Shown here piece after piece: positions 10,115 through 33,029 of a DNA stretch of 64,000 bases. The DNA is from Candidatus Bathyarchaeota archaeon (GTDB lineage Archaea > Thermoproteota > Bathyarchaeia > Bathyarchaeales > Bathycorpusculaceae). Position numbers and translations under genes: made by a program. Numbering within the stretch: the first letter of the stretch is position 1; every line of letters begins with the position of its first letter. Location: positions 1-64,000 of the forward strand of contig OY970176.1 of NCBI GenBank assembly GCA_963707955.1, given 5' to 3'. The notes under the pieces were generated by a model. It made no database searches. It had not been told where the DNA came from and saw only the letters and a program-made list of their open reading frames with translations.

Positions 10115-10179
10115 ATCCAAACGAGAAGACGCGCGCGTATATTGAATCACTTTAATGATGAGATGAGGCGAAATGGAGC

Positions 10180-15571: not shown

Positions 15572-15573
15572 GG

Positions 15574-15858: not shown

Positions 15859-15863
15859 GCGCT

Positions 15864-15933
15864 AAAAGTCTCTAGAAAGACAAGAAATCATACAGATCCC
15901 AAGTTGATTCCAGAGGTAGCGGGAATTCTTAAT
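15864..15933 (+). repeat. Copy of the 3' end and downstream flank of 7760..8749 (source 8706-8775)
   Basis: 25 bp identical AAAAGTCTCTAGAAAGACAAGAAAT, then degenerate match to TCTTAAT. Confidence 0.85.
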
Positions 15934-15979
15934 ATGGGGCAAGCTTCATGTATAGTTCGAACATGCATTGCTGCAGTAG

Positions 15980-18496
15980 GTGATAGCTATGGTTCGACAA
16001 ATAGCAAATCGCTTGTCCTCATTCGCTCGATTCTCAAAGAAGAAGGCTGGTGGACGCGCTGCAGTTGTCCTTCTTTTGTCCGTTTTTCTTTTAGAAATCT
16101 ACATTCCACCGAGAGTCTATGCTGTCACATTTTTCAGCAATGGCTTTGAGGAAGGCAATTATTCTGCGTACAGCGGAACAACCGTTACCACTGGTTGCAA
16201 CTTAACTGTAGTTGGTGATATCGTCAGGAGTGGCTCCTATTCCAGCAAAAGTGTGACTATAAATGGTGGTGGTTCTAATTCCTACTGCTACAAGACTTTG
16301 AGTTCTGCTCTATCGACATGCTATTTTCGCTTTTACCTGTACATAGATTCTACGCACGTGACGAGCAATCAGTATATGTGGTACGGAGAAATATGGGCTG
16401 CCAATGGATATTTCACACTGTTTTCAGTCGGCATAGGTCGTGGTTCGGCGATCTACATTGCTTACAGGTCAAATGGAACAGTATCGTTCAAAACTAGCTC
16501 TACAACTTGGTCAACAGGTCAATGGTATTGTGTCGAATTGAAACGTGTTCAGGATGCATCGAACGGAGAGGTAAGACTCTACATCAATGGTGCCGAAGTG
16601 ACTGACCTGACGACCACGGGGCTAAACACGGCTGACTATGCTGCAGGTCGCATAAGCATTGGACAGCGAGAAAATTGGAGGGGCAATGAAACAAGCCATG
16701 CGGATGATATCGTTGTTTCTGATAGCTATGTTGGTCCGTTAGCTTCGTCTCCACAGTTGTCAGTAACTCTGAACGGACCGCTAACTGGAAGTTCCTTGGC
16801 AGCTGGAACGATAAACTTCAATTACACGCCTGTATGTACCGGAGACAATATCCAGAATGCCTCATTGTGGATCAACGAGACTGGAACATGGCAAGCCCTT
16901 CAATCAAACTCATCGTTCGTAGTCAATGACACCATTAACACTATCAGTTATCCGTTGAACGGACCAGGGGTCTACGTTTGGAACATCGAAGTCTACAACT
17001 CCACGTATGGAGTCTTCGCGCAAGCTAATTCTACGCTGACCATAATTCCTCCACCTGAACCGACAACAACAGTCTCGCTCAACGCACCTTCCAACGGCGC
17101 AAACCAAAGCTCACTCTCTATTGCATTTGCGTACACGCCAACCTGTGTGGCAGACACCATTCAAAACTCTAGTCTATGGACAAATGCTTCAGGAACTTGG
17201 CAGAGCGTTCTTTCGAATTCCTCAGCAATACAGAACAACACGCAGAACGTATTTACTTATGTTTTCGCGTCCGCAGGAACCTATCTTTGGAACGTGGAAG
17301 TTTATAACTCGACAACCGGCGTGTTTGCTCCATCAAATTACACGCTGACGGTATTCCTTCCTTCGTTACTATCCGTCGCCTTGAACAGTCCCCAAAATGG
17401 GGTAAGCCAATCAAATGCAACGCTAGTATTTTCATATGTTCCAACATGCGTGGGCGATAACATCGCGAACTCCTCGCTATGGACTAACGCTACTGGAAGT
17501 TGGTTGCCCACATTGACCAACAGCAGTGCAATTGCAAACAACACTCAAAACATTTTCACCTACACGTTTTCTGCAAACGGCACGTACGTATGGAACGTTC
17601 AAGTTTTTAATAGGACGACAGGAATATTCGCACCATCGAACTGGACGGTAACCCTTACACCGAATGTGTCAACATATTTCGCCGATGGTTTTGAGGAAGG
17701 AAACTACTCGGCTTGGACAGGGACTATTATTTCGAGTGGGAATCTGACAATTGCAAGCAGCCCTGTGCACACTGGTTCTTACTCAAGCAAGAGTTTTACC
17801 TATGGTGGCCAGGGCTCTAATGCTTATTGCTACAAGACCTTAAAGTCGACCTTAGCAACTTGCTATTATCGTTTCTACCTCTACATAGATTCAACCGTCT
17901 CAGCAAGCAACCAGTATATGTGGTACGGAGAAATATGGGACGCTAACGGGTATTTCACACTCATGTCAGTAGGTGTTTCAAACGGCAATAAGATCTTTAT
18001 TGATTTTAGGAACAGCGGCACGATAACATTCAAAACGAGTGCCACAAGCTGGCCAATCCACCAATGGTGCTGTGTCGAGTTGAAACGCGTTCAGAGTGCT
18101 TCCAACGGAGAGATCAGACTCTACCTCAACGGCGTAGAGGTTACTGACTTAACAACTACGGGATTAAATACGGCGCAATATGCTGCTGGCCGCGTAAGCA
18201 TGGGAGAGCGAGAGAATTGGAGGGGCAACGAAACGAGCTACGCAGACGACATCGTTGTTTCCAGCAGCTACATCGGTCCGTTGACAGCTTCACAATCAGT
18301 GTCCGTCAGTTCAAAAAGCAAAACGACCGGGGCTAATATGCTCACTGGGATGATTAACTTCAACTATATCCCCATATCAACAGAAGGCAACATACGAAAC
18401 GCTACGTTAACACCTACAACCTATAACTTTGAACTGAATGATGAAGCGTCAGCTATCAAACGACTTAAGCCCTCACCCTCAGAGAAGATGGTCTAA
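15980..18496 (+). CDS. Secreted/membrane-anchored modular protein: two lectin/LamG-like domains flanking three Ig-like repeats
   Basis: N-terminal hydrophobic segment; GFEEGNYSA...WxCVELKR...DDIVVS domain twice; repeat VxLNxP...YxPxC..D.I.N.SLW.N.GxW...YxWNxxVxN three times; many NxS/T sequons. Confidence 0.7.
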   Translation: MIAMVRQIANRLSSFARFSKKKAGGRAAVVLLLSVFLLEIYIPPRVYAVTFFSNGFEEGNYSAYSGTTVTTGCNLTVVGDIVRSGSYSSKSVTINGGGSNSYCYKTLSSALSTCYFRFYLYIDSTHVTSNQYMWYGEIWAANGYFTLFSVGIGRGSAIYIAYRSNGTVSFKTSSTTWSTGQWYCVELKRVQDASNGEVRLYINGAEVTDLTTTGLNTADYAAGRISIGQRENWRGNETSHADDIVVSDSYVGPLASSPQLSVTLNGPLTGSSLAAGTINFNYTPVCTGDNIQNASLWINETGTWQALQSNSSFVVNDTINTISYPLNGPGVYVWNIEVYNSTYGVFAQANSTLTIIPPPEPTTTVSLNAPSNGANQSSLSIAFAYTPTCVADTIQNSSLWTNASGTWQSVLSNSSAIQNNTQNVFTYVFASAGTYLWNVEVYNSTTGVFAPSNYTLTVFLPSLLSVALNSPQNGVSQSNATLVFSYVPTCVGDNIANSSLWTNATGSWLPTLTNSSAIANNTQNIFTYTFSANGTYVWNVQVFNRTTGIFAPSNWTVTLTPNVSTYFADGFEEGNYSAWTGTIISSGNLTIASSPVHTGSYSSKSFTYGGQGSNAYCYKTLKSTLATCYYRFYLYIDSTVSASNQYMWYGEIWDANGYFTLMSVGVSNGNKIFIDFRNSGTITFKTSATSWPIHQWCCVELKRVQSASNGEIRLYLNGVEVTDLTTTGLNTAQYAAGRVSMGERENWRGNETSYADDIVVSSSYIGPLTASQSVSVSSKSKTTGANMLTGMINFNYIPISTEGNIRNATLTPTTYNFELNDEASAIKRLKPSPSEKMV

Positions 18497-18556
18497 GAGA
18501 CCTAGAAGCAATCTCCCTTGCCTACAAGAACCGGATAAGCCTCGGATAACCCGCCT

Positions 18557-18602
18557 CGTTCAATTGCCCTGTGCAATTATTGCGTACGTGTCTCAATCAT
18601 TG
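18557..18602 (-). repeat. Degenerate copy of the 3' end of the 19491..20580 gene (source 19488-19533)
   Basis: Encodes ND*DTYAIIAQGN* versus NDGDTYTVIAQGN*; ends at GCGCGCGCG 18604-18612. Confidence 0.85.
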
Positions 18603-18652
18603 TGCGCGCGCGAGAAAGCTTTTGCAGGAAGGGTCAAGGTTGACAGTTAGAT

Positions 18653-19490: not shown

Positions 19491-20580
19491 TCAGTTGCCC
19501 TGTGCGATTACCGTGTACGTGTCTCCATCGTTGGGCCCGTTAACGAAGCCGTTTCCGTTTGTGTCAAACCATTTGACTATTATCCAGCTTTCGCTCTGCG
19601 ATGCCAAATTCGGGTATATGACCGCGTCAAAGTATTTGCCCGCGGCGTAGGTTCCTTCCCAGACCGAACCCGTAGCACAGCATAATGTATCTGCCGTCTC
19701 CATCTCTGAATGTTTCGATGACAAACATGTCTTGATTCGTGCTGGCGACTCCGCCCTGCATGCTCGCACCTGGAATAGCTGAGCCATTCGAGTATTGAAA
19801 CGAGAGAAGACCATTATCGTTATGGAATTGGATGGGTGCCCTATCGGACGCGGTGGTACTGTTACTCTCCGAGTAAATCACGACTAGGTTTACCATGGGA
19901 CCGCCGAAACTCACTATGCCCGTCTCGGAGGCGCCCACTGGTTTTCCGTTGGTTTGGTTCACAAAACTACTGTTCGTGTCGAGTCCCTCCGTAAAGTTCG
20001 TGAGTTCTGAGGAAACGTACGCTGACGCTAGCCAATCGCTCACCATTGCCGGGTGGCAGCCAAGCGGCTTACCAGTGCTGTTCGAAGGATAAATCACCCT
20101 CACGCTTGTGTTGTTGGAGAAAAGATCAGCAAAATCACCCAGCCTCACGAATATCTCGCCGAAACCGATGTCGAAGCTGAAGCTTGAAACTCCGGACGCG
20201 TTGGGAAAAATCGTCAACGTCGGATCAACCTTCGCAACTTGGCCGGGCCTGATCTGCGGCTCCTCGCAGCTGAAACTAGCAACGTCAGACGTGTTGCCAG
20301 CAACCCAGTTCATCATGTCCACGGTCAAGAAAACCGACTCGTTCCCAAAGTTTCTAACGTACATCGTTAAGGTCTTCACACCTCCAACCGTCAGGTTACC
20401 CCAATCAATTGAATTAACAGGTGTGCTGCAATTCGCGTCCCAATAGATGCCTATGGGTACGCTTGTTATGACGCCTGACACTCTGAAAGGCGACTGAGAA
20501 TCAAAGAGCACTCTAGCCATCGAGAACGCTAAGACTATGACTATGGCAAAAACCAAAGCCCTTTTAATGTTCAGCAACAT
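19491..20580 (-). pseudogene. Secreted WGxLxPG-family protein with extra C-terminal domain, +1 frameshift near 19661
   Basis: GIYWDANCSTPVNSIDWGNLTVG; removing one base joins CYGFG to WEGTYAAGKYF...TYTVIAQGN; could be a sequencing error. Confidence 0.7.
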
Positions 20581-20789
20581 GGGCACCGTGGACGAAACGC
20601 CGATGAAACCATATATCAACATAACTTCCATAAATCATTTGTTGCCCTATCTTAAGACACAAGTCAGAAAAGCCTAAAAAACTATGAAGCTGAAAGATAT
20701 GGCACCTGAGCGCGCGCTGGAGCACACGCACATCAAGAACATCAAGAAGACATATAACCCCCGCACTGAACCAGTAGATCGGTGATCAA

Positions 20790-21023
20790 GTGATGGACCA
20801 GTGGAGAAGCAGAATAACACTGAACCCAAACGTACTGGCTGGAAAACCAATAATAAAAGGCACCAGGATATCCGTTGAATTCATCTTGGACCTTCTCGCC
20901 AACGGCTGGACAGCTAAAACAATACTGGAGAATTACCCGCAGCTCAAGAAAGAAGACATAACTGCAGTCTTAAAGTACGCCACCGAAATTTTGAAAGAAG
21001 AGAAGGTTTACCCACTTCCTTGA
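20790..21023 (+). CDS. DUF433 family antitoxin-like protein
   Basis: ITLNPNVLAGKPIIKGTRISVEFIL...YPQLKKEDI. Confidence 0.92.
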   Translation: MMDQWRSRITLNPNVLAGKPIIKGTRISVEFILDLLANGWTAKTILENYPQLKKEDITAVLKYATEILKEEKVYPLP

Positions 21024-21373
21024 CGAAATTCTTAGCCGACGAAAACATACCCATTAGAGCCGTGGAAACCCTAAAGCAGAAAAACATCGACATAATCCCA
21101 GTTCTGGACATCTCACACGGCCTAAGCGACCGAGAGGTACTTGACCTAGCAAACAGACAGGGCAGAATAATCATAACGTTTGACGCAGACTTCGGCAAAC
21201 TCGTATTCAAAGAAAAACGCAAAACGAAAGGCATAGTTCTTCTACGCTTCATCCCCAAATCCCCTCAACAAACAGCAAAAAGAATCGAACAAATAACAAC
21301 ATCTGGAATTCCATTAGAGAACTCCTTCCTCACGGTCAGAGAGGACAGCGTTCGAGTCATCCCAACGAAATAA
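21020..21373 (+). CDS. DUF5615 PIN-like toxin
   Basis: FLADENI, GLSDREVL, IITFDADFG; overlaps the DUF433 stop. Confidence 0.9.
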   Translation: MTKFLADENIPIRAVETLKQKNIDIIPVLDISHGLSDREVLDLANRQGRIIITFDADFGKLVFKEKRKTKGIVLLRFIPKSPQQTAKRIEQITTSGIPLENSFLTVREDSVRVIPTK

Positions 21374-21459
21374 AACCCACAGCGCGCGCGCTCCTCACCT
21401 ATGCATGCATGTCTTCGAGATAATGGTAAACCTTATATTCTTACAACTTGTAGTATAAA

Positions 21460-21702
21460 ATGGTAGTAACAGTGGGTAAGTACGAAACCGTTTCAGTAAA
21501 AGTCCCCCAAACAACGAAGGAGAAGATGAAGCAGCTGGGCATCAAACCCTCCGAGCTTTTACGGAGGGCCATAGAAGAAGAAATAAAAAGAAAACAAGTT
21601 CAAAACATCAAACAGGAAATACGAAGCATAAAAGCGACCCTTGACAAAATCCCCATGGAAACCATAATACAAAGCATCAGAGAGGACAGAGAACACAGAT
21701 GA
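21460..21702 (+). CDS. vapB: VapB-like (RHH) antitoxin
   Basis: TVSVKVP..KEKM..LGI..SELLRRAIEEE; ends IREDRE; overlaps vapC. Confidence 0.8.
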   Translation: MVVTVGKYETVSVKVPQTTKEKMKQLGIKPSELLRRAIEEEIKRKQVQNIKQEIRSIKATLDKIPMETIIQSIREDREHR

Positions 21703-22094
21703 GCTACATCTTCGATTCCTCAACAATATTCAAGGCAATAAAAGAAAACGCCGTCGAAATCCTAGCTAATAACTCAACACTAGACCTAACAAGATACGAG
21801 TTGGGAAACATCCTATGGAAAGAACACACGCTTCACAAGCGGATAAACCGCGAAGAACTGGAAAAACTCGTCAAACTCATAAAAAACGTGCTCAACCTAA
21901 TGGAAACCCTAACCATAAACTGCCACGAACAAGAAACACTAAACATAGCACACGACCTAAAAATAACCTTCTACGACGCATCGTACATATACCACGCCAA
22001 AAACAAGAAAACACCCCTAATCACCGAAGACAACGAATTAACGGAAAAAGCAAAACCACACATAAAAACACTGAAACTTCACAGCTTAACCTAA
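21699..22094 (+). CDS. vapC: VapC PIN-domain toxin
   Basis: IFDSS, YELGN, ITFYDASY, LITED. Confidence 0.9.
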   Translation: MSYIFDSSTIFKAIKENAVEILANNSTLDLTRYELGNILWKEHTLHKRINREELEKLVKLIKNVLNLMETLTINCHEQETLNIAHDLKITFYDASYIYHAKNKKTPLITEDNELTEKAKPHIKTLKLHSLT

Positions 22095-22200
22095 TCTCTC
22101 CCCAAAAATTCCTTTAAATTTTCCGCGCGCCCCACCAAACTGATCGACCGAGTCCTTAAACTCGCCAAGGTTAATGGTACACAAATTTTCTGGCCGGGTT

Positions 22201-22356
22201 CTACACGTTTCTTTTTATCGGGCCCACGTCAAAATCTTTGTCGTTTGACAATATTTCTTGTACGCCTCTTCTCATCGCTACCGCCAAATGTACAGCGTCC
22301 CCATAGTCAAGGGTGTATTCTTTCATCAGGTCCACTGCTCAAGTAAAGTCTTGAAA
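22201..22356 (-). pseudogene. C-terminal remnant of a VapC PIN toxin
   Basis: Hand translation FQDFT*AVDLMKEYTLDYGDAVHLAVAMRRGVQEILSNDKDFDVGPIKRNV*. Confidence 0.8.
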
Positions 22357-22451
22357 CAAACAGGCAGAAAAACGGTGCGTGCTGCAAAACATAAAAAGAT
22401 AAAAAGAGGATTATTGTCATTCCCAGAAAATAAGTGAGAGACAGACACAAA

Positions 22452-22739
22452 ATGGAAAAAGCGTTTGAGATGGGCAAGACCTCGGCTACTGGAAGCTTCC
22501 AGCTGCTCATATGCGTAGCCGTGTCTACCATAATCTTGGCCGTCGGATCCATAATTTTGGGCAGGTTTCTGACGACCGCCGAGTACGGGCTTTACGGAAT
22601 CGTGCTCGTCCCCGCAACGCTGATCAACCTGTTCAGGGACTGGGGCATAAACAGCGCCATGACAAAGTACATCGCAACCCTCAGAGCCTCAAACAAGGAA
22701 CAAGAAATACACGATTACATCGTCATCGGCGCGCGCTAA
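22452..22739 (+). pseudogene. Truncated 5' copy of the flippase gene 24483..26114
   Basis: About 280 bp near-identical to 24493-24770; identity stops at GGC followed by GCGCGC at 22729-22736. Confidence 0.92.
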
Positions 22740-22837
22740 TCTACGACTTCATCCAAAAACTACAGAAAAACCCAAACGAACTCGAAATACTTGGCGACGG
22801 AACCCAAAACAAATCCTATCTCCACATAAACGACTGA
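22736..22837 (+). pseudogene. Internal fragment of an NAD-dependent sugar epimerase/dehydratase
   Basis: IYDFIQKLQKNPNELEILGDGTQNKSYLHIND fits the GxGxQ..SY..D segment of archaeal UDP-glucose 4-epimerase-like SDRs; bounded by (CG)n on both sides. Confidence 0.75.
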
Positions 22838-22859
22838 GGCAAAAGATGCGCGCGCGATA

Positions 22860-23114
22860 TTATTGGTAAATCGTTTTTCTTGGGCCTATGGCTATAATGT
22901 AGATGGTCTTGTCTTTCTCTGAAATGGTGTAGATTATTCTGAGTTTCCCAACTCGTAGGCTGTAGTTTTCTTTCAAGTCTCCGTGAAGTCGTTTTCCTGC
23001 GTAGGATTGAATCTCTAAACCGATTAAACTTTCTCGAACTTGGGTTTTGACCTTTTCCTGTAGCTTTTTATAGAATTTCTCGGCTTGTCTTGATAAGAGA
23101 ATCGTGTATTTCAA
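22860..23114 (-). CDS. relE: RelE/ParE family toxin
   Basis: AEKFYKKL, GKRLHGDL, YSLRVGKLRIIY, IGPRKTIY. Confidence 0.9.
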   Translation of the reverse strand: MKYTILLSRQAEKFYKKLQEKVKTQVRESLIGLEIQSYAGKRLHGDLKENYSLRVGKLRIIYTISEKDKTIYIIAIGPRKTIYQ

Positions 23115-23329
23115 TGGGCTTCTTCCTTTAGAAGACTGTGCAGTTCCTTGACTCTTCCAGTCTTGATGTCTTCGAGGCCTTTGCGGATGTCTTTCATCAT
23201 GTCTGGATCGCTTAAAATCTCAATGGTCTCCAAGAGCTCGCCCATTAGCTTTGTGGCTTCGTCAAGCTTCTGCTTGGTTTCGGAGAGGAGCTTTCGGTCT
23301 TCCTCATCTAAATATGCAACCTTCGCCAT
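23111..23329 (-). CDS. RelE-associated antitoxin
   Basis: LLETIEILSDPDMMKDIRKGLEDIKTGRV; overlaps the toxin start. Confidence 0.85.
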   Translation of the reverse strand: MAKVAYLDEEDRKLLSETKQKLDEATKLMGELLETIEILSDPDMMKDIRKGLEDIKTGRVKELHSLLKEEAH

Positions 23330-23543
23330 TAAAATCACTCAAGCATTACAGATGTGGATCCGACTAATAAATTTGAAAGCGGAAACGCATGGTAGCCTCA
23401 ACAAGTGCTTCGAGTGTTCTCTCTTCATGATAGTTCTAGTCAAATCGCTTTCTGACTGCTTAAAAGCTAAATCACAGATGAATTTAGCGCGAGCCACAAA
23501 TGTTTATAGACTTCCCACACCGTTCTAAAAACAGGTGAATTGA

Positions 23544-23786
23544 TTGTCTGAAGACGTCGCGATAGCTCTTACAGACTTCAACAAAGATTTACAGTGGTTC
23601 CTCCAAAGCCGAGAAAAGCTTCTGCCAAAATACCAGAACAAGTGGGTGGCAATCTCCAACAACAAAATTCTAGATTCAGACCAAAATTTAACAGCACTTT
23701 TAAAAAGGTTGAAAGCCAAGGGACTTCAACCGGAACAAACACTCATACAATTCCTCTCCAAGGAACCCATAGAGGCAATATTGTGA
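23544..23786 (+). CDS. DUF5678-like small protein
   Basis: LLPKYQNKWVAISNNKILDSD motif. Confidence 0.7.
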   Translation: MSEDVAIALTDFNKDLQWFLQSREKLLPKYQNKWVAISNNKILDSDQNLTALLKRLKAKGLQPEQTLIQFLSKEPIEAIL

Positions 23787-24208
23787 GGATACCTAGCTAC
23801 ATAAACTATGGTTACCGGCCTCCAACCCCATTCGTCGCCGCAGCAATCAACCTCCGCCAATTAAATATAAGAGCAAGAACCCCTCTCCTAGTAGATACTG
23901 GCGCATCAAACACCATGATCCTCTGGGGAGACGTTGAGCGCCTCGGAACAGACATTTCTAAGATGAAACCTGAAAGGATGTTTTCAGGGCTTGGAGGATT
24001 AATAGGAGCTAAACCAACAGCGAGCACAATAAGCCTCAGGTCCGACAAAGGAGAACCTATCGAAGAGAACGTTGAAGTCCACATCGTTACAAGCAGTTGC
24101 CCGCATCCAAAGCTAAAACTTCTCCCAAGCATACTGGGGCGCGACATCATCAACAAGTACACATTAAACTACAGCTACGATGCTGGAAAAGTAATCCTAA
24201 AAAAATAA
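23783..24208 (+). CDS. Retropepsin-like (clan AA) aspartyl protease
   Basis: LVDTGASNT catalytic motif, GLGG flap, SILGRD; GTG start overlaps the upstream stop. Confidence 0.85.
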   Translation: MRIPSYINYGYRPPTPFVAAAINLRQLNIRARTPLLVDTGASNTMILWGDVERLGTDISKMKPERMFSGLGGLIGAKPTASTISLRSDKGEPIEENVEVHIVTSSCPHPKLKLLPSILGRDIINKYTLNYSYDAGKVILKK

Positions 24209-24482
24209 GTCACCCGATAGGCATGCTCCCACAATTAATTCTCATCCTTGCCGTAAAACTTAGCAAATTCTATTGAGCAACCTATAATCTTAAATGGTTT
24301 AACAACAACCTAGCGCGCGCTAGCGCTGAAAAAAACGACCGGGTACCCGAACTTTCAGGCACACGAGCCCTCAAAGTTCCTCTACCACGCGTCCTGCACA
24401 CAGATAAACTTCACCCGCAAACAACTAGACCACGAAACCGTTAAACAGATTCCGACCCCCATTTGAACAGGCTTAGAGAGGA

Positions 24483-26114
24483 TTGAAAGCCGTGGAAAAA
24501 GCGTTTGAGATGGGCAAGACCTCGGCTACTGGAAGCTTCCAGCTGCTCATAGGCGTAGCCGTGTCTACCATAATCTTGGCCGTCGGATCCATAATTTTGG
24601 GCAGGCTTCTGACGACCGCCGAGTATGGGCTTTACGGAATCGTAGTCGTCCCCGCAACGCTGATCAACCTCTTCAGGGACTGGGGCATAAACAGCGCCAT
24701 GACAAAGTACATCGCAGGCCTCAGAGCCTCAAACAGGGAACAAGAAATACACGATTACATCGTCACCGGCATAATCTTCGAAGTCGCAAGCGGCATCGCA
24801 CTTTCATTCCTGTCCCTGCTCTTGGCAAGCTTCATCGCCTCAGCAATCTTCAACAAACCAGAATCCGCATCCTACATAGCCATCGTCTCAGCCTCGATAA
24901 TCTCAGGCTCGCTACTCGCAGCGGTCCAAGCAGGCTTCATAGGCTACGAAAGAATGGAGCTCAACAGCTTCACACTCATCTGCCAAGCCATCGTGAGAAC
25001 CGCCATAGGCCCCGGACTCGTCCTGCTCGGATACGGCGTCCTGGGCGCAACCGTCGGCTTCACCACCGGCGCTGCAGCTGGTGGAGTCATCGGCTTAGCA
25101 GTCTTTTACCTGGCCCTGCTCAGACCCCTCACAAAAAAGCTAGCAAAGGATCCAAGCACACGCCCTAGGATGAGTGCCTCTAAAACTCTGAGAACAATGT
25201 TAAACTACGGAGTGCCACTTTCAATAGGCGGCATCCTGACGGGCATCCTAGGGCAAGTTTACGCTTTCATGATAATCCCTCTAACCAGCGAAACGATGTA
25301 CGGCAATTATCTCGTGGCAGGCAACTTCTCCGTCCTTCTAACCTTCTTCACCATCCCTATATCGACAGTGCTGTTCCCAGCGTTTGCAAAGCTGGACCCC
25401 CAGAACGAGCTTGAGTTCCTAAAAAACGTCTTCGCATCCTCAATCAAGTACACTTCCATACTGGTAGTGCCAGCAACGATGGTCCTAATGGCCCTATCAG
25501 GCCCGATAGTCGGCACATTGTACGGAGCAAAATACGTTTCCGCACCCTTCTTCCTAACCATATACGTCATAGGTAGCCTGTTCGCCGTCCTCGGAAGCCT
25601 AAGCTCAGGCGGTTTCCTATACGGCTTGGGAGAAACGAGAATAGTCATGATACAGAGTATAGTAACAGTGGCCATCGGCCTTCCCCTAGGCATCGTCCTT
25701 ATCCCAACGTTCGGAATAACAGGCCTCATCGTCGCAAGCGTCGTCGCAGGACTACCAAGCATGTTCTGGGGCCTCTACTGGGTATGGAAACACTACAAGG
25801 CCAAAGCGGACTTCGCATCATCAGCAAAGATCTTTGCATCATCAGCGATTGCTGCCGTCCTTGCATACTTGCCCATGGTCTTCCTCAACACGGCCAACTG
25901 GATAAAACTCATAATCGGCCTAATCATCTTCCTAGCCGCCTACATCTTCGGCGCACCCATGATCGGCGCAGTAAGCCTGACAGACATAAACAACCTCAGA
26001 ACCATGTTCTCCAGCATGAGCAGTATATCAAAGATAATAGACATCCCATTAAAAGCCGCAGAAAAAGCCGCACGGACCAAATCGGCAAACAGAAAAACAG
26101 GCGAGAAGCCTTAA
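24483..26114 (+). CDS. Oligosaccharide flippase (Wzx/MATE-like)
   Basis: Many TM helices, RLL...EYGLY, D.GI..A.TKY, LFPAFAKL. Confidence 0.88.
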   Translation: MKAVEKAFEMGKTSATGSFQLLIGVAVSTIILAVGSIILGRLLTTAEYGLYGIVVVPATLINLFRDWGINSAMTKYIAGLRASNREQEIHDYIVTGIIFEVASGIALSFLSLLLASFIASAIFNKPESASYIAIVSASIISGSLLAAVQAGFIGYERMELNSFTLICQAIVRTAIGPGLVLLGYGVLGATVGFTTGAAAGGVIGLAVFYLALLRPLTKKLAKDPSTRPRMSASKTLRTMLNYGVPLSIGGILTGILGQVYAFMIIPLTSETMYGNYLVAGNFSVLLTFFTIPISTVLFPAFAKLDPQNELEFLKNVFASSIKYTSILVVPATMVLMALSGPIVGTLYGAKYVSAPFFLTIYVIGSLFAVLGSLSSGGFLYGLGETRIVMIQSIVTVAIGLPLGIVLIPTFGITGLIVASVVAGLPSMFWGLYWVWKHYKAKADFASSAKIFASSAIAAVLAYLPMVFLNTANWIKLIIGLIIFLAAYIFGAPMIGAVSLTDINNLRTMFSSMSSISKIIDIPLKAAEKAARTKSANRKTGEKP

Positions 26115-26144
26115 TACCATCGCACTGCACAGCTTAAACATTCA

Positions 26145-26780
26145 TTGTCCAACAAGTTGATAATGTTGACCCACCAAGAACAAGGCAGTTTTCACTCGGC
26201 TTCAGACTTTCTGCGCCGCCTCAGGAGAACCATCCTCCTCAGGCTACACTCAGCCTCAGACTCTCTGCGCCGCTCAAAGAAGACGATCTTGCTCATAATC
26301 ATCGTAGCCGCCGCGACGCTCATCATCAGCGGAACCATCTCCATAATTCTGGACGGCCGTAACAGCATAAGCCTACCCAGCATCGGCTACATCCACACGG
26401 TAGGCGTAAAAACCTACTGGGACCCAACCCTGCAGAACCAAACAGCACAGATCGCCTGGGGCACAATCTACCCAGGCTCATCCAATAACGTCACACTGTA
26501 CTTGCAGAGCAGCAGCAACGTCCCAGCGACACTAAGCCTCGCAACGACAAACTGGACGTACTCAAACGCAAACAACACCGTCGCCGCGGGGCCATCGGAC
26601 ACCACGCCGTACATGAACGTGACCTGGAACTACCAGAACCAGACACTGAACCCAGGTCAAACCTTCCAGACAACACTCACATTAACAACAGACAACTCTG
26701 CAAGCTTCCTTACGTTTCTAGTAAACAACAACATAACGCAGTTTAACATGGACATAACAATTCAAGCAAACGAAATATAA
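26145..26780 (+). CDS. Secreted WGxLxPG-family protein
   Basis: TM segment then SISLPSIGYIHTVGVKTYWD...IAWGTIYPGS...LYLQSSSNVP; 54-bp tandem duplication at the N-terminus. Confidence 0.75.
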   Translation: MSNKLIMLTHQEQGSFHSASDFLRRLRRTILLRLHSASDSLRRSKKTILLIIIVAAATLIISGTISIILDGRNSISLPSIGYIHTVGVKTYWDPTLQNQTAQIAWGTIYPGSSNNVTLYLQSSSNVPATLSLATTNWTYSNANNTVAAGPSDTTPYMNVTWNYQNQTLNPGQTFQTTLTLTTDNSASFLTFLVNNNITQFNMDITIQANEI

Positions 26781-26845
26781 CATCATAAACCAAGCGCCCG
26801 CCTTAAGAACGCCTTAAATCAGCCTGCTCACGTGAGTAGTCCATT

Positions 26846-27091
26846 ATGAACAAAGACCTTGACACGCGCGCAGTTCTCAAAGTAGTCGGTGAAGCCCTCT
26901 TCCTGTACGGGCTACTAGGCTGGACCTACGGAGTGCTAATACAGATAACACATCCTGACTTCCTGTACACAAGTCTGTCTCATCTCATACCTTGGATTAG
27001 AGTAGACACGTTCTCAGTGTTGTCTTTCATCTTAAGCATCATCGGATTCTTCATCTGGAGACTAACCCGAGAAACAGGCAGGCACCAGTGA
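26846..27091 (+). CDS. Small two-TM membrane protein
   Basis: Two hydrophobic helices, ATG start. Confidence 0.7.
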   Translation: MNKDLDTRAVLKVVGEALFLYGLLGWTYGVLIQITHPDFLYTSLSHLIPWIRVDTFSVLSFILSIIGFFIWRLTRETGRHQ

Positions 27092-27294
27092 AACCAGCGC
27101 GCTAGCGTGTTCCTAAATTCTTTCGGGAAGCAGCTTGCGTTGCTCATTTTGCTCTTCAACCATATTTGGACCATATTTGGACCATATAGGATACCCGGGG
27201 GGGAGGGTGTGAGAGCGAGAGAGCACCCAGCCGAACCTTGACGGTGACCATCGAAAAACGTCAAGCCTTCCTCTTGAACGCAATCTAGGAATTC

Positions 27295-27428
27295 AGGAAC
27301 AAGCATGCGTGCAAGAAACGGCTTCGACGTTCAAATACACCCTTCCAAAGTCTAGGAACTACACAAAAGGCCCAGAAAACGAGGCTTTCAGGTGCGCCAG
27401 ACCGGAAGGATCAGCGAAAGCTGAAAAC
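27295..27428 (+). repeat. Intergenic direct repeat, copy 1 (copy 2 is split: 30565-30582 plus 30817-30943)
   Basis: AAGAAACGGCTTCGACGTTCAAATACACC...GCTTTCAGGTGCGCCAGACCGGAAGG..CAGCGAAAGCTGAAAAC present twice. Confidence 0.93.
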
Positions 27429-27506
27429 GAGCAACTTCAGCGAGGGCGGATAACCAATATTTCTTTAAGCGTTCGTAAGGACATAATACGGTGAAGAGGG
27501 CTTACC

Positions 27507-27896
27507 GTGAGTAGAAAAGAAGAGGCGGAGCACTTACTCAAGAGATCAAAGGAATTTCTAGAAACCGCTGAATATCAGATAAGCAGAGGCCTTTACGGTA
27601 TAGCGGTCTTCAGCCTCGAGCAAGCATTGCAGCTATTCCTCAAGTCGAAGATGTTGATAGCAGGCGTCGACTACCCAAGAACACACGGGGTGAGAACACT
27701 CCTCGAAATACTCTCCGACGTGGAGTCTGATGAGAAAAAAAGAGGGATAAAACACATGTTGAACGATTACCTCCTTGAACTGGGCATGCTGGAAGATGCC
27801 TATATAACATCTCGGTACGTTATGAGAGAGTTCACAAGCGAAGAAGCTCAGAGATTAGCAAAAACCGTTAAGGAAGTGATGAACAACGTCAAATGA
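27507..27896 (+). CDS. HEPN domain protein (HEPN-MNT pair)
   Basis: EQALQLFLK, YPRTH, YITSRY. Confidence 0.9.
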   Translation: MSRKEEAEHLLKRSKEFLETAEYQISRGLYGIAVFSLEQALQLFLKSKMLIAGVDYPRTHGVRTLLEILSDVESDEKKRGIKHMLNDYLLELGMLEDAYITSRYVMREFTSEEAQRLAKTVKEVMNNVK

Positions 27897-27903
27897 AACC
27901 ATA

Positions 27904-28203
27904 GTGAAGACGGCTCTCAAGAGAAGAGAAGCCTTCAGAAACCTGGAAAAAAATCTGCAAACCATCCGAGAGACCGTCAGAAAGCTGGATCCCCAGGTTG
28001 AAGTGTACCTGTTCGGTTCAACAGCAGAGAAAAGGCACACCTATTCGAGCGACATAGACGTTCTCATAATCACTAAAAAAGAGCCGGCTAGAGTGCAATA
28101 TGAACTGTGGAAAGCCGGAATCAAGGATCCATTCGAAATTCACGTACAACCACCCGAGAAACTACACCTCTACAAAAGAAAAACCAAACTCGTCAAAGCA
28201 TAG
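27904..28203 (+). CDS. Minimal nucleotidyltransferase (MNT) antitoxin
   Basis: VYLFGS...SDIDVL, PFEIH. Confidence 0.9.
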   Translation: MKTALKRREAFRNLEKNLQTIRETVRKLDPQVEVYLFGSTAEKRHTYSSDIDVLIITKKEPARVQYELWKAGIKDPFEIHVQPPEKLHLYKRKTKLVKA

Positions 28204-28329
28204 GCTTCCACCCGCTCAACAAAAACCTTTTCGAAGCCCCTAAAATTCTTCTCTTGCCAAACCTACCTCTGACGCGATCTCCATCAATAATACTATCTGC
28301 AACGTATGTCTGACAATTGCACGCGCGCT

Positions 28330-28740
28330 TTATGGCTCCTTCTTCGGTTCGGTCTTTGCCGGTTCGGTCTTTGCCGGTTCGGTCTTTGCCGGTTCTTTCT
28401 CTTCGACTGTCTTCAAAGCCCCTTTTAATTCGACTTTAATCTCCCTCAGCAGGTTGACGCCTAAGGATCCAATTTTTCCACCGCCCCACATGACGAAAGC
28501 CATCAGTACAAACCAAACAAGCAAACCAGTAGCCCTGTTCATGTCTTTGCCTGAAACCACCAGCGTACCGTTTACGGAAATGTCTGAGAAATTGAACAGT
28601 TTCGGAGGGCCGTTGCTGCCCGTGAAAACAAGTATCATCTCAAAGACCGCGAAGAAAATCACAGCGACGCCTACGGCCAACAAAACGTATCCCACAATCC
28701 TTCCGTTTTTCCAGTTCAACTTCAAACGTTTCAGCCTCAC
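28330..28740 (-). CDS. Two-TM membrane protein with C-terminal (EPAKT)x3 repeat
   Basis: Hydrophobic helices; 15-bp tandem GGTTCGGTCTTTGCC at about 28346-28395. Confidence 0.75.
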   Translation of the reverse strand: MRLKRLKLNWKNGRIVGYVLLAVGVAVIFFAVFEMILVFTGSNGPPKLFNFSDISVNGTLVVSGKDMNRATGLLVWFVLMAFVMWGGGKIGSLGVNLLREIKVELKGALKTVEEKEPAKTEPAKTEPAKTEPKKEP

Positions 28741-28854
28741 AAACCACTACCAAATTACTTACTATAAAAGCTTGCATGTAAAAGCATTAACAAGCGCGCG
28801 CGTGGTAAGAAAGTATAAATAAAAGTAATACAAGCTTACTAACTGGTAACCGAA

Positions 28855-29106
28855 TTGCCCACGAAGAACGTTGGCCCAAAAGGGCAGGTTGTGATTCCTA
28901 AACGCATAAGAGATGCCTTGGGTCTAAAGCCAGGCGTCGACGTCACGATTGAAGTCAGAGGAGAAGAAATAGTGATAAGCAAACCAAAAATTGAAGGCAG
29001 TTACACCGAGTACTACACTTCCACATACTCTCCAAAACTGAAAGAATCCGTAGACGTCAAAAAAATAATAACCGAGGAAGTAGCCCAGAGACATGCCCTA
29101 CATTGA
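28855..29106 (+). CDS. AbrB/MazE-type antitoxin
   Basis: VGPKGQVVIPKRIRDALGLKPG. Confidence 0.92.
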   Translation: MPTKNVGPKGQVVIPKRIRDALGLKPGVDVTIEVRGEEIVISKPKIEGSYTEYYTSTYSPKLKESVDVKKIITEEVAQRHALH

Positions 29107-29503
29107 TTCGAACGTCTTCATATACGCCGCCATATACCAAACAGAATCGCAACAAAAAGCAAAAAAAGCCAAAGAAACACTCCTAAAGATAGAAAACGGA
29201 GAGATACCAGCATACACGTCAACGCTGACATGGGACGAAGTCGTATGGGTCGTCAGCAAGCTATTAAACAGAAATGACGGAATAAACCAAGGCAAAAAAC
29301 TACTCGGCTTCCCAAACCTAGAATTCATAGACGTAGACGAAGGGATACTCACCTTGGCTCAAAACCTATTAAACAAATACAAGCTCAGCCCGCGCGATTC
29401 CATACACGCAACCTCGGCAGTCATCAGAAAGATAAAAACAGTTATCAGCGACGACAAAGACTTTGACCAAGTCAAAGAAATAACCAGGACTCCACTAGTA
29501 TAA
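29093..29503 (+). CDS. vapC: VapC PIN-domain toxin
   Basis: YIDSNVFI, TWDEV, PRDSIHA, ISDDKDFD. Confidence 0.92.
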   Translation: MPYIDSNVFIYAAIYQTESQQKAKKAKETLLKIENGEIPAYTSTLTWDEVVWVVSKLLNRNDGINQGKKLLGFPNLEFIDVDEGILTLAQNLLNKYKLSPRDSIHATSAVIRKIKTVISDDKDFDQVKEITRTPLV

Positions 29504-29557
29504 CCCACGCGCGTGGACGTTTAAAGACTTGGAAACGGGATAGGAATAATCAGACGC

Positions 29558-29632
29558 CTCAAAATCTGTGCCGACGAAAGCGTTAACAATGCCATCGTTG
29601 AAGGCCTAAAGAGATGCCGCGTAGGAGCATGA
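29558..29632 (+). pseudogene. N-terminal remnant of a DUF5615 PIN-like gene
   Basis: LKICADESVNNAIVEGLKRCRVGA* resembles the N-terminus of 21020..21373 (KFLADENIPIRAVETLKQ); lies between CCACGCGCGTGG and ACGCACGT. Confidence 0.6.
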
Positions 29633-29737
29633 CGCACGTTAAGGTAAGGCAGCGAGTGTGATCGGCAGCCAAACTCAACAGTTTCCGACATATTTATTAA
29701 TGTAAGGCATTATATGTTTCTGTGGGTGAAATTGGTT

Positions 29738-29998
29738 TTGGTAGAAACCGTTACCGTCACTTCGAAGGGGCAGGTGACCATTCCTTCAAGGCTGAGAAGA
29801 GAACTGAAAATACTGAAAGGAGAAAAACTCCTGATTGTCCGCGAGGGAAACGCCCTCAAAATCATTCCAGTACCCAAGCTGTCCAAGTTAGCCGGCGTGG
29901 ACGAGGAAATGTTCCGTGACAGAAAGCCTTCAGAAGAAATTCAGACCATGAGAAAGGAGTGGACAAAAGAATTTGACAAACGAACCCAGCAAGCCTAA
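29738..29998 (+). CDS. AbrB/MazE-type antitoxin
   Basis: VTSKGQVTIPSRLRRELKI. Confidence 0.9.
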   Translation: MVETVTVTSKGQVTIPSRLRRELKILKGEKLLIVREGNALKIIPVPKLSKLAGVDEEMFRDRKPSEEIQTMRKEWTKEFDKRTQQA

Positions 29999-30416
29999 GA
30001 TCGTCCTGGACACAAAACCCTTCATCAAACTTTTCGCAAAAGAAGAAGGCTGGGAAACCGTTCAGAAAATCCTCTGCAAAATCGAAGATGACGAAATCGA
30101 AGCGACGATCAGCGTAGTCACCCTCACAGAAATCTACTACAAGTATCTGCACGAGAAAAGACCAGACTTGGCCAGAACCAGAACTCAAGAGCTCAGGTAC
30201 GCCGTATACCTCAAGAAGCTAGAGATAGACGAAGAGGCCGCCGTCAAAGCCGGCGAATTCAAAGGCAAATACAACGTTCCCATAGCTGACGCCTTCATAG
30301 CAGCCGCCGCCTACTTTGAAGCATCAACCATAATCAGCGACGACCCAGACTTCAAGAGAATACCCGAAATCAAAACCCTGACCGAAAAAGAATTCATCTC
30401 ACACCCGCCAACATAG
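29973..30416 (+). CDS. vapC: VapC PIN-domain toxin
   Basis: VLDT, TLTEI, IADAFIAA, SDDPDF. Confidence 0.92.
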   Translation: MTNEPSKPKIVLDTKPFIKLFAKEEGWETVQKILCKIEDDEIEATISVVTLTEIYYKYLHEKRPDLARTRTQELRYAVYLKKLEIDEEAAVKAGEFKGKYNVPIADAFIAAAAYFEASTIISDDPDFKRIPEIKTLTEKEFISHPPT

Positions 30417-30816
30417 CGCGCTAGCGTGTCCCCAAATTCAGTTTTTCAAGCGTGACGTGACCGAGTTGATTCATGTCCAATAGACAATGCTCCTTGCATC
30501 AAGATCAGACAGCAATCCTCGAACCAACCAAGCATATAAGAAAAACCGGCATGCGAACGAATAAAGGAACAAGCATGCGCGCTTTTCAACAATCCTCGCC
30601 AACTGTATATGCAAAACGTATATGCAAAATGTATATGCTTCTACGCGCTCCATTCTCTTTCTCACTGTGCCTTTCCTGACACTTTCAATTAATCTCAGAC
30701 TGACATTAAAGCGAACTTGCTCGCCTACTTCTTCCCTCCACTTATAATGATTCCCCCACAACTACAGGGAACCATCAGAAAACATCCTTCACCCTCTTAA
30801 AATAGAACTTGAACGA

Positions 30817-30943
30817 GCACGCACGCAAGAAACGGCTTCGACGTTCAAATACACCCCTTCCCAAGTCTAGGAACTACACAAAGAGCCCCGAAAACGAGGC
30901 TTTCAGGTGCGCCAGACCGGAAGGGCCAGCGAAAGCTGAAAAC
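30817..30943 (+). repeat. Intergenic direct repeat, copy 2 of 27303-27428
   Basis: Near-identical over about 125 bp with scattered substitutions. Confidence 0.93.
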
Positions 30944-31126
30944 TCGCATTATCTCGCCTGCCCAGAAAAAGATTTTGGACACAACTGAATCAAATGCTCA
31001 TTAAGACCATAAAGCATGATCTTCTGCGTAAGATTTATGTAGAGGATTATTCTATAGGACGATTCCTCATCGGTTTAATTAGCCGTTCTGTCAACTTTAT
31101 GCTGACGGAAAAGAAAGGAGAAGAAA

Positions 31127-31822
31127 ATGCTTCAGTCATCTGTGTCAGTGGTCATTCCCGCCTTCAACGAACAGAAAACCATAGGACACGTGATCGAAGA
31201 AACCATCTCGGTGATGGACAGCCTAGGAGTCCCATACGAGATCATCATAGTTGACGACGGGTCCACGGACAGAACAGGACAAGTAGCCACGACGTACAAA
31301 GCAACCGTTCTGACGAACGAAATAAACAGGGGAAAAGGCTACGCCATAAGAAAAGGCTTCGAACAAGCAACGGGCGACATCATCGTCACCCTGGACTCTG
31401 ACGGAGAACACAGCCCCAAAGAGATACCAGACCTACTCAATCCGCTGTCCAACGGCACGGACATCGTTGGCGGTTCAAGGTTCTTAGGCAACAACGCCTA
31501 CTCAACGACCAGACTCAACCGTCTCGGCAACTTCATCTTCAACATGGCCATCGCAACGCTAACTGGAAAACGGGTAACAGACAGCCAAACAGGCTTCAGA
31601 GCCTTCAAAAAAGAAGTCCTCCAGAAACTCAACCTAGCCTCTTCAGGCTACGAAATAGAAACCGAAATCACAGTTAAGGGACTGAAGAACGGCTTCACCT
31701 TCGAAGAAAAACCCATAACCTGCAAGCAGAGACAATACAGCGTTTCAAAACTGAAAATACTCAGCGACGGAACCAAAATCCTCAAAACAATGCTGAAGGC
31801 CAACCTGGCCACGATCGACTAG
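31127..31822 (+). CDS. GT2, dolichol-phosphate glycosyltransferase (DPM1-like)
   Basis: VIPAFNE, DDGSTD, NRGKG, LDSDGEH, GSRF, DSQTGFRA. Confidence 0.92.
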   Translation: MLQSSVSVVIPAFNEQKTIGHVIEETISVMDSLGVPYEIIIVDDGSTDRTGQVATTYKATVLTNEINRGKGYAIRKGFEQATGDIIVTLDSDGEHSPKEIPDLLNPLSNGTDIVGGSRFLGNNAYSTTRLNRLGNFIFNMAIATLTGKRVTDSQTGFRAFKKEVLQKLNLASSGYEIETEITVKGLKNGFTFEEKPITCKQRQYSVSKLKILSDGTKILKTMLKANLATID

Positions 31823-31909
31823 TTTTCGCCAGGCGCGCGCTAGTGTGAAAAGTCTAAGGGTCAAGAAACCTTAAAAACACTCCCTCAAGAATCTTCTAAT
31901 GAAAAGGAA

Positions 31910-32827
31910 ATGACCCACCAAGAAAAGCAAGGAGCAGAAGAACCTGCCGGCGCAAATGCCGAATTGGAATCAACGAAACAGCTCACAGCCACGCTTGATC
32001 AGCTGCAGAAAGAAGTTGCAAGTCTGAAGTCGCAGCTTGAGGCAACGAACCGAAAATCCTCAAGCAGAATCGGCATAGTCTTCGCTGTTCCCGGCATCTT
32101 GTCACTCGCATTCTCCGTCATAACAGCATCACAAGTCCTGGCATTCATCGGCCTGGGCTTAACGTTCTGGGGAGCCCTCTTCTTCTTGGTCAGACCCATC
32201 GCCTACGTCAGAGGCAACCTCCTAGGCATAACAGCAGTCACACTGTACTCAACGATCGACAGAATAATCAAAGACTTGAACTACGAAGGAAAGGGCCTCT
32301 ACGTGCCGCCATACCCAAGAGACGCTTATCTGCCCGAACACCTAAAAGGCCTCAAAGAATCCATCGTGTTCATATCCGCCGACGCCGACTCAGGCCCACC
32401 ATCGGTCGAGGAGATCGCGAGCAGCAGGTTCATGACAAAAAAACCCAGAGGAATATGCATAACTGCACCCGGATCAGGCCTCGTGGACCAGTTTGAAAAA
32501 ATGTTGAGAACAGACCTGACCAAGATGAACCTCGAAGACTTGTGCGCCAGCCTACCACAGATCATCCTGGAAAACTTTCAGCTCGCAAAAGAAATCGAGA
32601 TGAAAACAGAGGATCACCGAGTCATCCTGAAAACATCCGACTCAGTCTTCAAAAACCTCTACCTTGAAGAAGGCCCAAGAAGCGTGCGACTTCTAGGATG
32701 CCCTCTCGTCAGCGCCGTAGCATCCGCACTGGGGAAGACAACGGGCAAAGCGACTCTGATCGAGTCCATTAACACTTCGCCAGACGTTCAAACTATCGAA
32801 GTCTCCTACGGCTTCAAAGAAGGTTAG
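31910..32827 (+). CDS. Conserved-looking membrane protein (coiled coil, two TMs, soluble C-terminal domain)
   Basis: Long ORF; LGCPLVSAVA near the C-terminus. Confidence 0.65.
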   Translation: MTHQEKQGAEEPAGANAELESTKQLTATLDQLQKEVASLKSQLEATNRKSSSRIGIVFAVPGILSLAFSVITASQVLAFIGLGLTFWGALFFLVRPIAYVRGNLLGITAVTLYSTIDRIIKDLNYEGKGLYVPPYPRDAYLPEHLKGLKESIVFISADADSGPPSVEEIASSRFMTKKPRGICITAPGSGLVDQFEKMLRTDLTKMNLEDLCASLPQIILENFQLAKEIEMKTEDHRVILKTSDSVFKNLYLEEGPRSVRLLGCPLVSAVASALGKTTGKATLIESINTSPDVQTIEVSYGFKEG

Positions 32828-32831
32828 GAAG

Positions 32832-33029
32832 ATGAGGTTTCCACTGTCAGTCTCCGACATCGGACTGTGGCTCGCAGTCACCGCGATCATACTCTTGGTA
32901 ACCTCTGAACTGCTTTCCTCCTCTACCGGCCGACTGGGAAACGTTGCGATTGAAAAGAAACGTCTCAGATTAATCGCGTTAGCGCTCGGAATAGGCTTCT
33001 TGGCAACGGTCGTCATGCGCGTTGTTTAG
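32832..33029 (+). CDS. Small two-TM membrane protein
   Basis: Two hydrophobic helices, 4 bp downstream of the previous gene. Confidence 0.7.
   Translation: MRFPLSVSDIGLWLAVTAIILLVTSELLSSSTGRLGNVAIEKKRLRLIALALGIGFLATVVMRVV

Follow-up and report, generated by a model that had tools for sequence, protein, structure and literature searches.

Short alternating GC palindromes at the joints of an archaeal toxin-antitoxin array, probably the seams of a gene shuffling other than an integron

What separates the small gene units of a toxin-antitoxin (TA) array, and how did these units come to stand side by side? This question is raised by a stretch of about 10 kb (positions 20710-30421) in the genome of a Candidatus Bathyarchaeota archaeon (GCA_963707955.1, contig OY970176.1), called G000 below, which consists of one contig of 2.35 Mb with 47.9% G+C. 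The window analysed here is its first 64 kb and related genomes are numbered in the same way (G001, G007 and others). In the array, gene units lie between tracts, defined as runs of strictly alternating G and C and counted from 6 nt upward. An earlier note had interpreted the stretch as an integron-like series of TA cassettes without integrase. The analysis leads to a different view, held with a probability of roughly 0.55, namely that insertion, deletion, inversion and exchange between species have rearranged modules and glycan-gene debris, that the palindrome (T)A(GC)4-5T(A) stands at their seams, and that the joining process itself writes the tracts. The odds are thus slightly better than even that these palindromes are the seams of a gene shuffling that is not an integron and that was not described before.

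Thirteen tracts of 6-10 nt were found in the array, at positions 20710, 21382, 22124, 22729, 22848, 24313, 26865, 27097, 28322, 28794, 29391, 29508 and 30416, and eleven of them are located outside intact open reading frames (ORFs), though 75% of the array is coding. The counts of GCGCGC and CGCGCG over the whole window are 50 and 41, against 11.9 +/- 3.5 and 10.3 +/- 3.6 in shuffled sequences, and none of 100 shuffles reached either count.

The region 20000-31000 was used to screen 31 related genomes, 22 of which gave matches, and the loci of ten relatives were then compared with it. Homology ends at tracts: 24 of the 44 ends are found no more than 5 nt from a tract of one genome or the other, and 28 no more than 12 nt, whereas only 2.2% of all positions of the region and 5.4% of its non-coding positions are within 5 nt of one, a background of about 5% for each genome. 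The bracketing of units by tracts that the earlier note described was therefore confirmed. Unit order and orientation also differ among relatives. For instance, in the sister species G001 (about 91% identity to G000) the VapBC unit follows next after the membrane-gene unit, a tract separating the two, and these units are 6 kb apart in G000. Position 28801 is the end of the membrane unit in both G001 and G007 as well as in a metagenome contig. In the same way, the RelE unit is 98.3% identical to its copy in G001 and 98.9% to that in G007, the latter being inverted with respect to Wzx. As the highest identity among 64 long high-scoring segment pairs (HSPs) between G001:C1 and G000 is 96.05%, this unit has moved between species recently. 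These comparisons support the view that the units act as separable modules, whose homology at most borders stops at or near tracts and which occur in both orientations and in no fixed order.

Alternative arrangements were also observed in contig sets from other studies' public metagenomes (X5, X6 and X9). Their joints were called at 92% likeness and therefore come from relatives and not from the source strain. A joint in X5 connects 28801 to 21413 (shorter side 83 nt) and corresponds to the arrangement of G001; another connects 24322 to 28375 (46 nt). Weaker joints, with a shorter side of 21-25 nt and in two cases of only 21 nt, connect 22853 to 28328 (X5, 21 nt, tract to tract), 24386 to 27099 and 22374 to 29520. 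Moreover, the match of a 1611-nt contig from another study (X9 record 32) is confined to 29520-30421, which lies between two tracts. Altogether, five of ten metagenome joints have an end in a tract or within 7 nt of one, and two of the other five are variation internal to a miniature inverted-repeat transposable element (MITE). Stretches that the contigs left uncovered were not counted as evidence.

In addition, tracts abut truncated genes. The N-terminal fragment of a Wzx-type flippase gene is cut at tract 22729; its intact copy is found about 2 kb downstream, and at the corresponding point neither this copy nor that of G007 has a tract. The fragment of G001 extends about 60 nt further and ends at a tract of its own. 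Next to it, a fragment of an epimerase gene shows 97% identity to the interior of the intact, Pfam-identified epimerase gene of G001 (L012:2218-3180). A PIN gene is reduced to a stump in G000 and an intact AbrB-PIN pair is retained in G001 (L011:6671-7347). Finally, the G001 copy of the DUF5615 gene is cut by a tract after a few codons, and two tyrosine recombinase genes follow.

The tracts are not a peculiarity of this locus. G000 contains 1151 runs of at least 6 nt, with 510, 186, 267, 130, 56 and 2 runs of 6, 7, 8, 9, 10 and 11 nt respectively, and thus a peak at 8. The most over-represented 8-mer of the genome is GCGCGCGC (464 copies against 28 expected from dinucleotide frequencies). Of the exact 8-nt runs, 231 have G and 36 have C as their first base; among the G-first runs, A precedes in 166 of 231 and T follows in 162 of 231. 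From this phase and these flanks the motif is therefore (T)A(GC)4T(A). AGCGCGCGCT was counted 114 times against 2.2 expected, AGCGCT showed no enrichment in the genome, and no consensus is visible in the flanks beyond A/T and TA. According to crude ORF calls, 72% of the 8-nt runs are intergenic, compared with 13% of the genome. Tracts lie within 10 nt past a stop codon more often than random intergenic positions do (9.9% against 5.7%) and are depleted near starts; this bias fits a trimming of the DNA down to what selection protects. The motif was not found described in the literature on GCGCGCGC in archaea and on toxin-antitoxin systems or integrons of Bathyarchaeia, as judged from titles and abstracts, subscription journals not being covered.

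How tracts arise was approached by aligning a 392-kb contig of G001 to G000 (about 91% identity). Of 105 long-HSP ends, 29 are at most 12 nt away from a tract of one genome or the other, for an intergenic background of 5.8%, and only 3 of these 29 have a tract in both genomes. The contig carries 113 tracts: 70 in DNA without homolog in G000, 18 at the edge of such DNA, 4 joining distant G000 segments, 12 conserved, 6 decayed in G000, 2 opposite a long G000 segment and 1 as a pure insertion. Tract density is about five times higher in G001-specific than in shared DNA. Several collinear gaps were observed in which one genome has a bare tract and the other 0.5-4 kb without terminal tracts. In one of them, a 10-nt tract of G001 takes the place of about 4 kb, and the long allele of G000 has no tract at either end. 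The flanks of this gap are 3.9-4.1 kb apart in G000, G007, G009, G008 and G004, which are all the other genomes of the genus in which both flanks could be located, out of 10 searched besides G001. The G001 tract is therefore derived, which makes at least one case of a tract that came into being with a deletion.

As read here, the array belongs to the flexible part of the genome and adjoins glycan genes; modules as well as gene fragments have been taken up there, cut back, inverted and passed between species. Its features are collected in Table 1.

Table 1. Tracts, gene units, gene fragments and mobile elements of the array and its right border.
Feature	Position in window	Strand	Remarks
Tract GCGCGCGC, left border of DUF433 unit	20710-20717		G001:C1 homology begins exactly here; G001 has decayed GCGAGCGC
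DUF433 + DUF5615 pair, putative TA	20790-21373	+	PF04255 3.7e-25 (20790-21020), PF18480 5.5e-25 (21020-21370)
Tract, 10 nt	21382-21391		VapBC-unit homology begins 22 nt rightward (21413); G001 tract 4 nt from the same start
VapB-like + VapC (PIN) pair	21460-22094	+	PIN 1.4e-06 at 21699-22091; antitoxin with only a weak CcdA match
Tract	22124-22130		occupies the place of 104 bp in G001; an X6 contig also stops at 22124
PIN gene, C-terminal remnant, last 44 codons	22201-22335	-	Pfam 22204-22335; PIN profile positions 82-115
Wzx-type flippase, N-terminal fragment, first 101 codons	22434-22736	+	truncated duplicate of 24483-26114
Tract at Wzx-fragment truncation point	22729-22736		
NAD-dependent epimerase gene, internal 100-bp fragment	22737-22836	+	bracketed by tracts 22729 and 22848
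Tract, RelE-unit border	22848-22856		G007 homology begins here
ParE/RelE toxin + 75-aa putative antitoxin	22860-23338	-	toxin 22863-23114; PF05016 2e-09; partner without family
Decayed tract GCGCGAGC	23487-23494		perfect 10-nt tract in G001, where G001 homology ends
DUF5678 + retropepsin-like aspartyl protease pair	23544-24208	+	Pfam (23544-24205); not an established TA family
Tract	24313-24320		near X5 joint of 24322 and 28375
MITE copy, GCGCGC tips	27097-27312	+	right tip decayed to GCGTGC (27303-27312)
HEPN + minimal nucleotidyltransferase (NTP_transf_2) pair	27507-28203	+	Pfam (27507-28200)
Tract just beyond membrane-gene stop	28322-28328		near X5 joint of 22853 and 28328
Small membrane protein, 136 aa, KTEPA-repeat tail	28330-28740 (28333-28740)	-	no Pfam family
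Tract, border common to three genomes	28794-28802		G001 and G007 homology ends at 28801
MazE/AbrB + PIN pair	28855-29503	+	Pfam; G017 homology covers 28805-29497
Tract CGCGCG, left border of last VapBC unit	29508-29513		X9 record 32 and X5 record 13 begin at 29520; X9 record 31 ends at 29504
MazE/AbrB + PIN pair	29714-30416	+	Pfam (to 30413); G012 homology stops at 30416
169-bp element, terminal repeats as in MITE	30415-30583	+	tipped by tracts 30416 and 30577; 90.5% identity to G001:C4, homology ending at both tips

Pfam searches identified the gene pairs as they had been named. Six of them have the layout of type II TA systems, that is, small adjacent or overlapping genes of predicted toxin and antitoxin families: two MazE/AbrB + PIN pairs, ParE/RelE with its small partner, HEPN + NTP_transf_2, PIN with a weakly CcdA-like partner, and DUF433 + DUF5615. 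The array contains four of the eight PIN (PF01850) matches and the single HEPN (PF05168) match of the genome. Units are found on both strands and carry their own upstream region, as the earlier note had reported: 42-50 nt precede the first start codon in shared blocks, which begin at 21413, 28805 and 29672 for genes starting at 21460, 28855 and 29714. The VapBC block (21413-22124) shows 94.8% identity to G001:C1:390524-391235, and the best relative match of the HEPN-nucleotidyltransferase unit reaches only 70%. The unit met in the most different contexts is the membrane gene, which is not a TA pair; it was found beside VapBC in G001, in G007:C7 and in two X5 joints. In the KTEPA tail of its product, the underlying 15-nt DNA repeat varies in copy number among G000, G001 and G007.

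Three borders had been described as short or degenerate. That at 23487 stands, with its perfect counterpart in G001, and that at 27303 is the decayed tip of a MITE; on the contrary, no support was obtained for 29632, the border being located at 29508-29513. The 'DUF5615 remnant' proposed nearby (29546-29629) had to be abandoned, as Pfam assigned it to no family and BLASTP did not align it with the intact DUF5615 protein. A search of 20000-31500 against Rfam gave no known RNA family at E up to 0.1, and in the PADLOC defence annotation the sole match was the nucleotidyltransferase, a weak one, to the candidate systems PDC-S09 and PDC-M05A. The tract-rich zone extends past the array on both sides (10130-18612 and 31833-33449), through neighbouring surface and glycan genes. 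A direct duplicate of 117 bp, 94% identical, was noticed at 27313-27429, to the right of the MITE, and at 30827-30943, upstream of a glycosyltransferase gene, so that the block from the HEPN-nucleotidyltransferase pair to the last VapC sits between two like copies. A repeat of about 55 nt directly after the 169-bp element (30584-30640) has at least nine more copies in G000 and is also present in G007 and G001.

A family of mobile elements resides in the tracts. The MITE of about 200 bp has 16 full-length copies in G000, with ends reading GCGCGC-TAGCGTGTTCC, and an insertion sequence (IS) with the same ends and a frameshifted DDE_Tnp_1 (PF01609) transposase gene is located at 389080-390157. Terminal inverted repeats, dispersed copies and an IS partner carrying a DDE transposase characterize it as an IS5-like IS/MITE family, copies of which are tipped by tracts; among 86 terminal-repeat cores in G000, 50 adjoin a tract. 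Related IS copies in three other families are likewise GCGCGC-tipped, and seven copies in G121 all end TA-GCGCGC ... GCGCGC-T. At two sites, an insert in G001 corresponds to a 9-nt tract in G000 and to a decayed tract without insert in G007 or G010; this pattern agrees with insertion into tracts that were already present, though an ancestral copy may also have been excised. Elsewhere in the genome (G000:C1:1822735-1825026), a C-terminal gene fragment whose translation was judged by eye to resemble a membrane pyrophosphatase has MITE-type terminal repeats and tracts on its sides, and a different 671 bp is present at this site in G001.

The distribution of tracts was followed in a class sample of 151 Bathyarchaeia genomes. 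Thirteen are tract-rich, each with 16-131 copies of AGCGCGCGCT and a low reversed-pattern control, and these are spread over several families; sister genera in the family of G000 itself have 0-4 copies. Several candidates for the enzyme were considered. A Ku homolog is encoded in G000 (PF02735, E 1.2e-40; G000:C1:958105-958644), and Ku was found in 24 of the 151 genomes, that is in 3 of the 13 tract-rich ones and in 21 of the 138 others. As its presence does not follow tract richness, Ku was rejected as the scar-maker. A GCGC-type restriction-modification system with a C5 methylase was set aside, since no PF00145 match was obtained in G000 (other methylase families were not searched), and so was TnpB, with no PF07282 match in G000. 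Nine Phage_integrase (PF00589) matches occur in G000, the nearest at 156,923 and none in the window, which bears out the lack of an integrase reported for the array. When these nine tyrosine recombinases and the two of G001 were compared with one another, none of them being profiled, no candidate stood out. The two G001 genes are adjacent, 46% identical and located right behind the tract that truncates DUF5615 (L013:1296-4030; G001:C1, about 303.3-306.0 kb).

If the tracts are written at seams, a sequence of steps may be proposed. A module would consist of a core promoter and one or two genes, many of them TA pairs, and would be small and self-contained. A DNA-joining process would write the palindrome at new junctions. 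Through annealing or a site-recognising enzyme, existing tracts could then be reused as universal joints at which further DNA is deleted, inverted or captured, because all tracts are identical to each other in both orientations. TA pairs might accumulate in the array because their addictive nature would protect them where other DNA is cut back to promoters and stops. The fullest form of this proposal is more tentative and falls somewhat short of even odds: a dedicated joining activity of some Bathyarchaeia would write (T)A(GC)4-5T(A) and reuse the copies as joints, forming a cassette system without integrase or att sites that would shuffle units of promoter and gene, these TA pairs among them, within and between species, with a specialised IS family adapted to life in the joints.

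Several observations weigh against tracts being seams written by the joining process. Two array tracts lie inside ORFs (26865 and 29391). Copies elsewhere were expected to lose identity at the tracts, which holds at most borders, but G001 homology passes 12 nt through tract 22848 and an X5 contig continues through 23487. Similarly, order varies among relatives, and yet the succession VapBC, PIN remnant and Wzx fragment is common to G000 and G001, across tract 22124. Flanks shared beyond a tract and a shared gene order had been named in the earlier note as counting against its interpretation, and both are thus present in part. Tractless junctions exist, such as 22352/22353 and, where the epimerase fragment gives way to the RelE unit, a difference of 1444 bp. 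Of the three other AbrB-PIN pairs in the genome, tracts bracket only one. The threshold at which metagenome joints were called and the few nucleotides on the shorter side of some of them should also be kept in mind. Only one de novo case is polarised by outgroups; a second locus, G001:C1:21344, has three alleles of 12, 296 and 803 bp and is not polarised. The truncation cases in the window would also be explained if tracts had arrived with the incoming segment and had not been written there. Finally, the candidates considered (Ku, the IS transposase, C5 methylase, TnpB and the tyrosine recombinases) yielded no enzyme.

Other explanations have to be weighed against this one. A site-specific cassette system, with tracts as recombination sites between which units are cut out and put in by a recombinase encoded elsewhere, would account for tract-bounded units in both orientations and variable order, for the tract-to-tract joint of 22853 and 28328 and, the site being palindromic, for inversions such as that of the G007 RelE unit; nine Phage_integrase matches are available in the genome. 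It is nevertheless rather unlikely. The most telling point is that tracts stand at gene truncations and are absent from the intact copies (Wzx, epimerase, the DUF5615 gene in G001). The deletion in G001, with a long G000 allele lacking terminal tracts, points the same way, as do sites numbering 1151 across the genome and not confined to one array, and homology at 21413 that starts 4-22 nt from the tract without a fixed crossover point. The borders of 6-10 bp have no attC-like imperfect inverted repeat: within 160 nt, only four pairs of inverted repeats were found in 20000-31000, and none at unit borders except the tract palindromes themselves. Together with truncated genes, the deletion tract and the upstream DNA of the units, this leaves the integron-like mechanism of the earlier note without support. 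An explanation by pre-existing fragile or recombinogenic sequence, with nothing writing the tracts, is unlikely. Alternating GC is prone to form Z-DNA and offers 8 bp of all-GC microhomology, tracts are mutually complementary both ways, junctions cluster at them, and the Wzx junction was trimmed differently in G000 and G001, with a tract at each of two cut points. This view, however, leaves the origin of the tracts unexplained and does not account for the sharp length peak, the fixed phase and the A/T flanks; nor does it suit a tract replacing 4 kb whose ends are tractless in G000, or HSP ends of which only 3 in 29 have a tract in both genomes.

Quite improbable is a derivation of the tracts from ends or excision footprints of the IS5-like IS/MITE family, with transposon-mediated rearrangements. 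Two copies stand in the array, the genome holds many MITEs and terminal-repeat cores beside tracts as well as an IS with the same ends, and the G121 ends suggest that a solo TA(GC)4TA could be two 4-nt tips between a TA duplication. Yet MITE ends cover at most 86 of the 1151 tracts, and the empty sites in G007 and G010 hold decayed, hence old, tracts. In the class sample, 7 of the 13 tract-rich genomes gave no match to the transposase, which did turn up in 22 of the 138 others, and the terminal-repeat pattern had no occurrence in four of five tract-rich genomes searched; with no clean link in this profile, the transposase was rejected as the cause. The simple footprint model was likewise discarded: its shortest expected footprint, TAGCGCTA, occurs 8 times against 16.8 expected, and AGCGCT is not enriched either. 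Improbable to much the same degree is a functional intergenic signal, such as a protein-binding site, an insulator or a terminator-like element, related to seams only because both are intergenic. The intergenic share of the tracts, their enrichment after stops and depletion near starts, and a fixed length with palindromic flanks resembling a binding site speak in its favour. On the contrary, homology ends are several-fold nearer to tracts than the non-coding background, tracts abut gene fragments and are about five times denser in G001-specific DNA, their presence is patchy across the class, even inside one family, and only 12 of 113 G001 tracts are conserved.

If palindromes are indeed written and reused at joints, these very abundant sediment archaea would possess a form of genome plasticity and gene exchange outside the known routes considered here, namely integrons, transposons, homologous recombination and Ku-type end joining. 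As an example, the TA array is compact and well resolved, with about a dozen seams in 10 kb and with alternative arrangements supplied by sister species and unrelated metagenomes; it is therefore a good place to seek the enzyme and to date events. It also displays the survivors of shuffling, minimal modules trimmed to core promoter and stop codon, many of them putatively addictive TA pairs, beside variable surface-glycan genes. New in this analysis are the array itself as a dense TA example, its joints in unrelated metagenomes, the refinement of the motif, the IS/MITE family resident in the tracts, and the profiles in which neither Ku nor this IS follows tract richness.

Comparison with known systems places the array near several of them. 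Junctions made by Ku/LigD non-homologous end joining (NHEJ) may carry filler or non-templated nucleotides. As in such filler, extra nucleotides that are missing from both parents stand exactly at a deletion joint; here, however, sequence and length are fixed and palindromic, and Ku is present in only a minority (3/13) of tract-rich genomes. Repetitive extragenic palindromes (REP) and bacterial interspersed mosaic elements (BIME) are imperfect, hairpin-forming palindromes of 20-40 nt that are spread by RAYT (Y1) transposases. With these and with REP-targeting IS, the tracts share a short, over-represented intergenic palindrome in which an IS/MITE family is seated, but the present motif of 8-12 nt is too short for a stable hairpin and is found at rearrangement joints and truncations; RAYT was not searched. 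In integrons, attC is an imperfect inverted repeat of about 55-140 bp at each cassette border, and in clusters of attC sites lacking integron-integrases (CALINs) IntI is missing by definition. None of the attC-like repeats, adjacent IntI or promoterless cassettes in a single orientation, transcribed from one shared promoter, of these systems was observed in the array. Integron arrays and CALINs, including archaeal integrons (PMC9668308), have in common with it small, mostly single-operon units, a repeated border, variable content and frequent TA cassettes; they differ from it by borders of 55-140 bp where a perfect palindrome of 6-10 bp stands here without IntI in the window, and by cassettes where the present units occupy both strands, bring their own upstream DNA and belong to a genome-wide set of sites that includes gene truncations and a deletion joint. 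Finally, TA-rich islands and the TA cassettes of chromosomal integrons (PMC13108822) likewise place type II TA modules in a hypervariable, exchanged region by surface-glycan genes; in the present array there is no integron platform, TA pairs are mixed with gene debris and MITEs, and it is the gene for a membrane protein that travels most.

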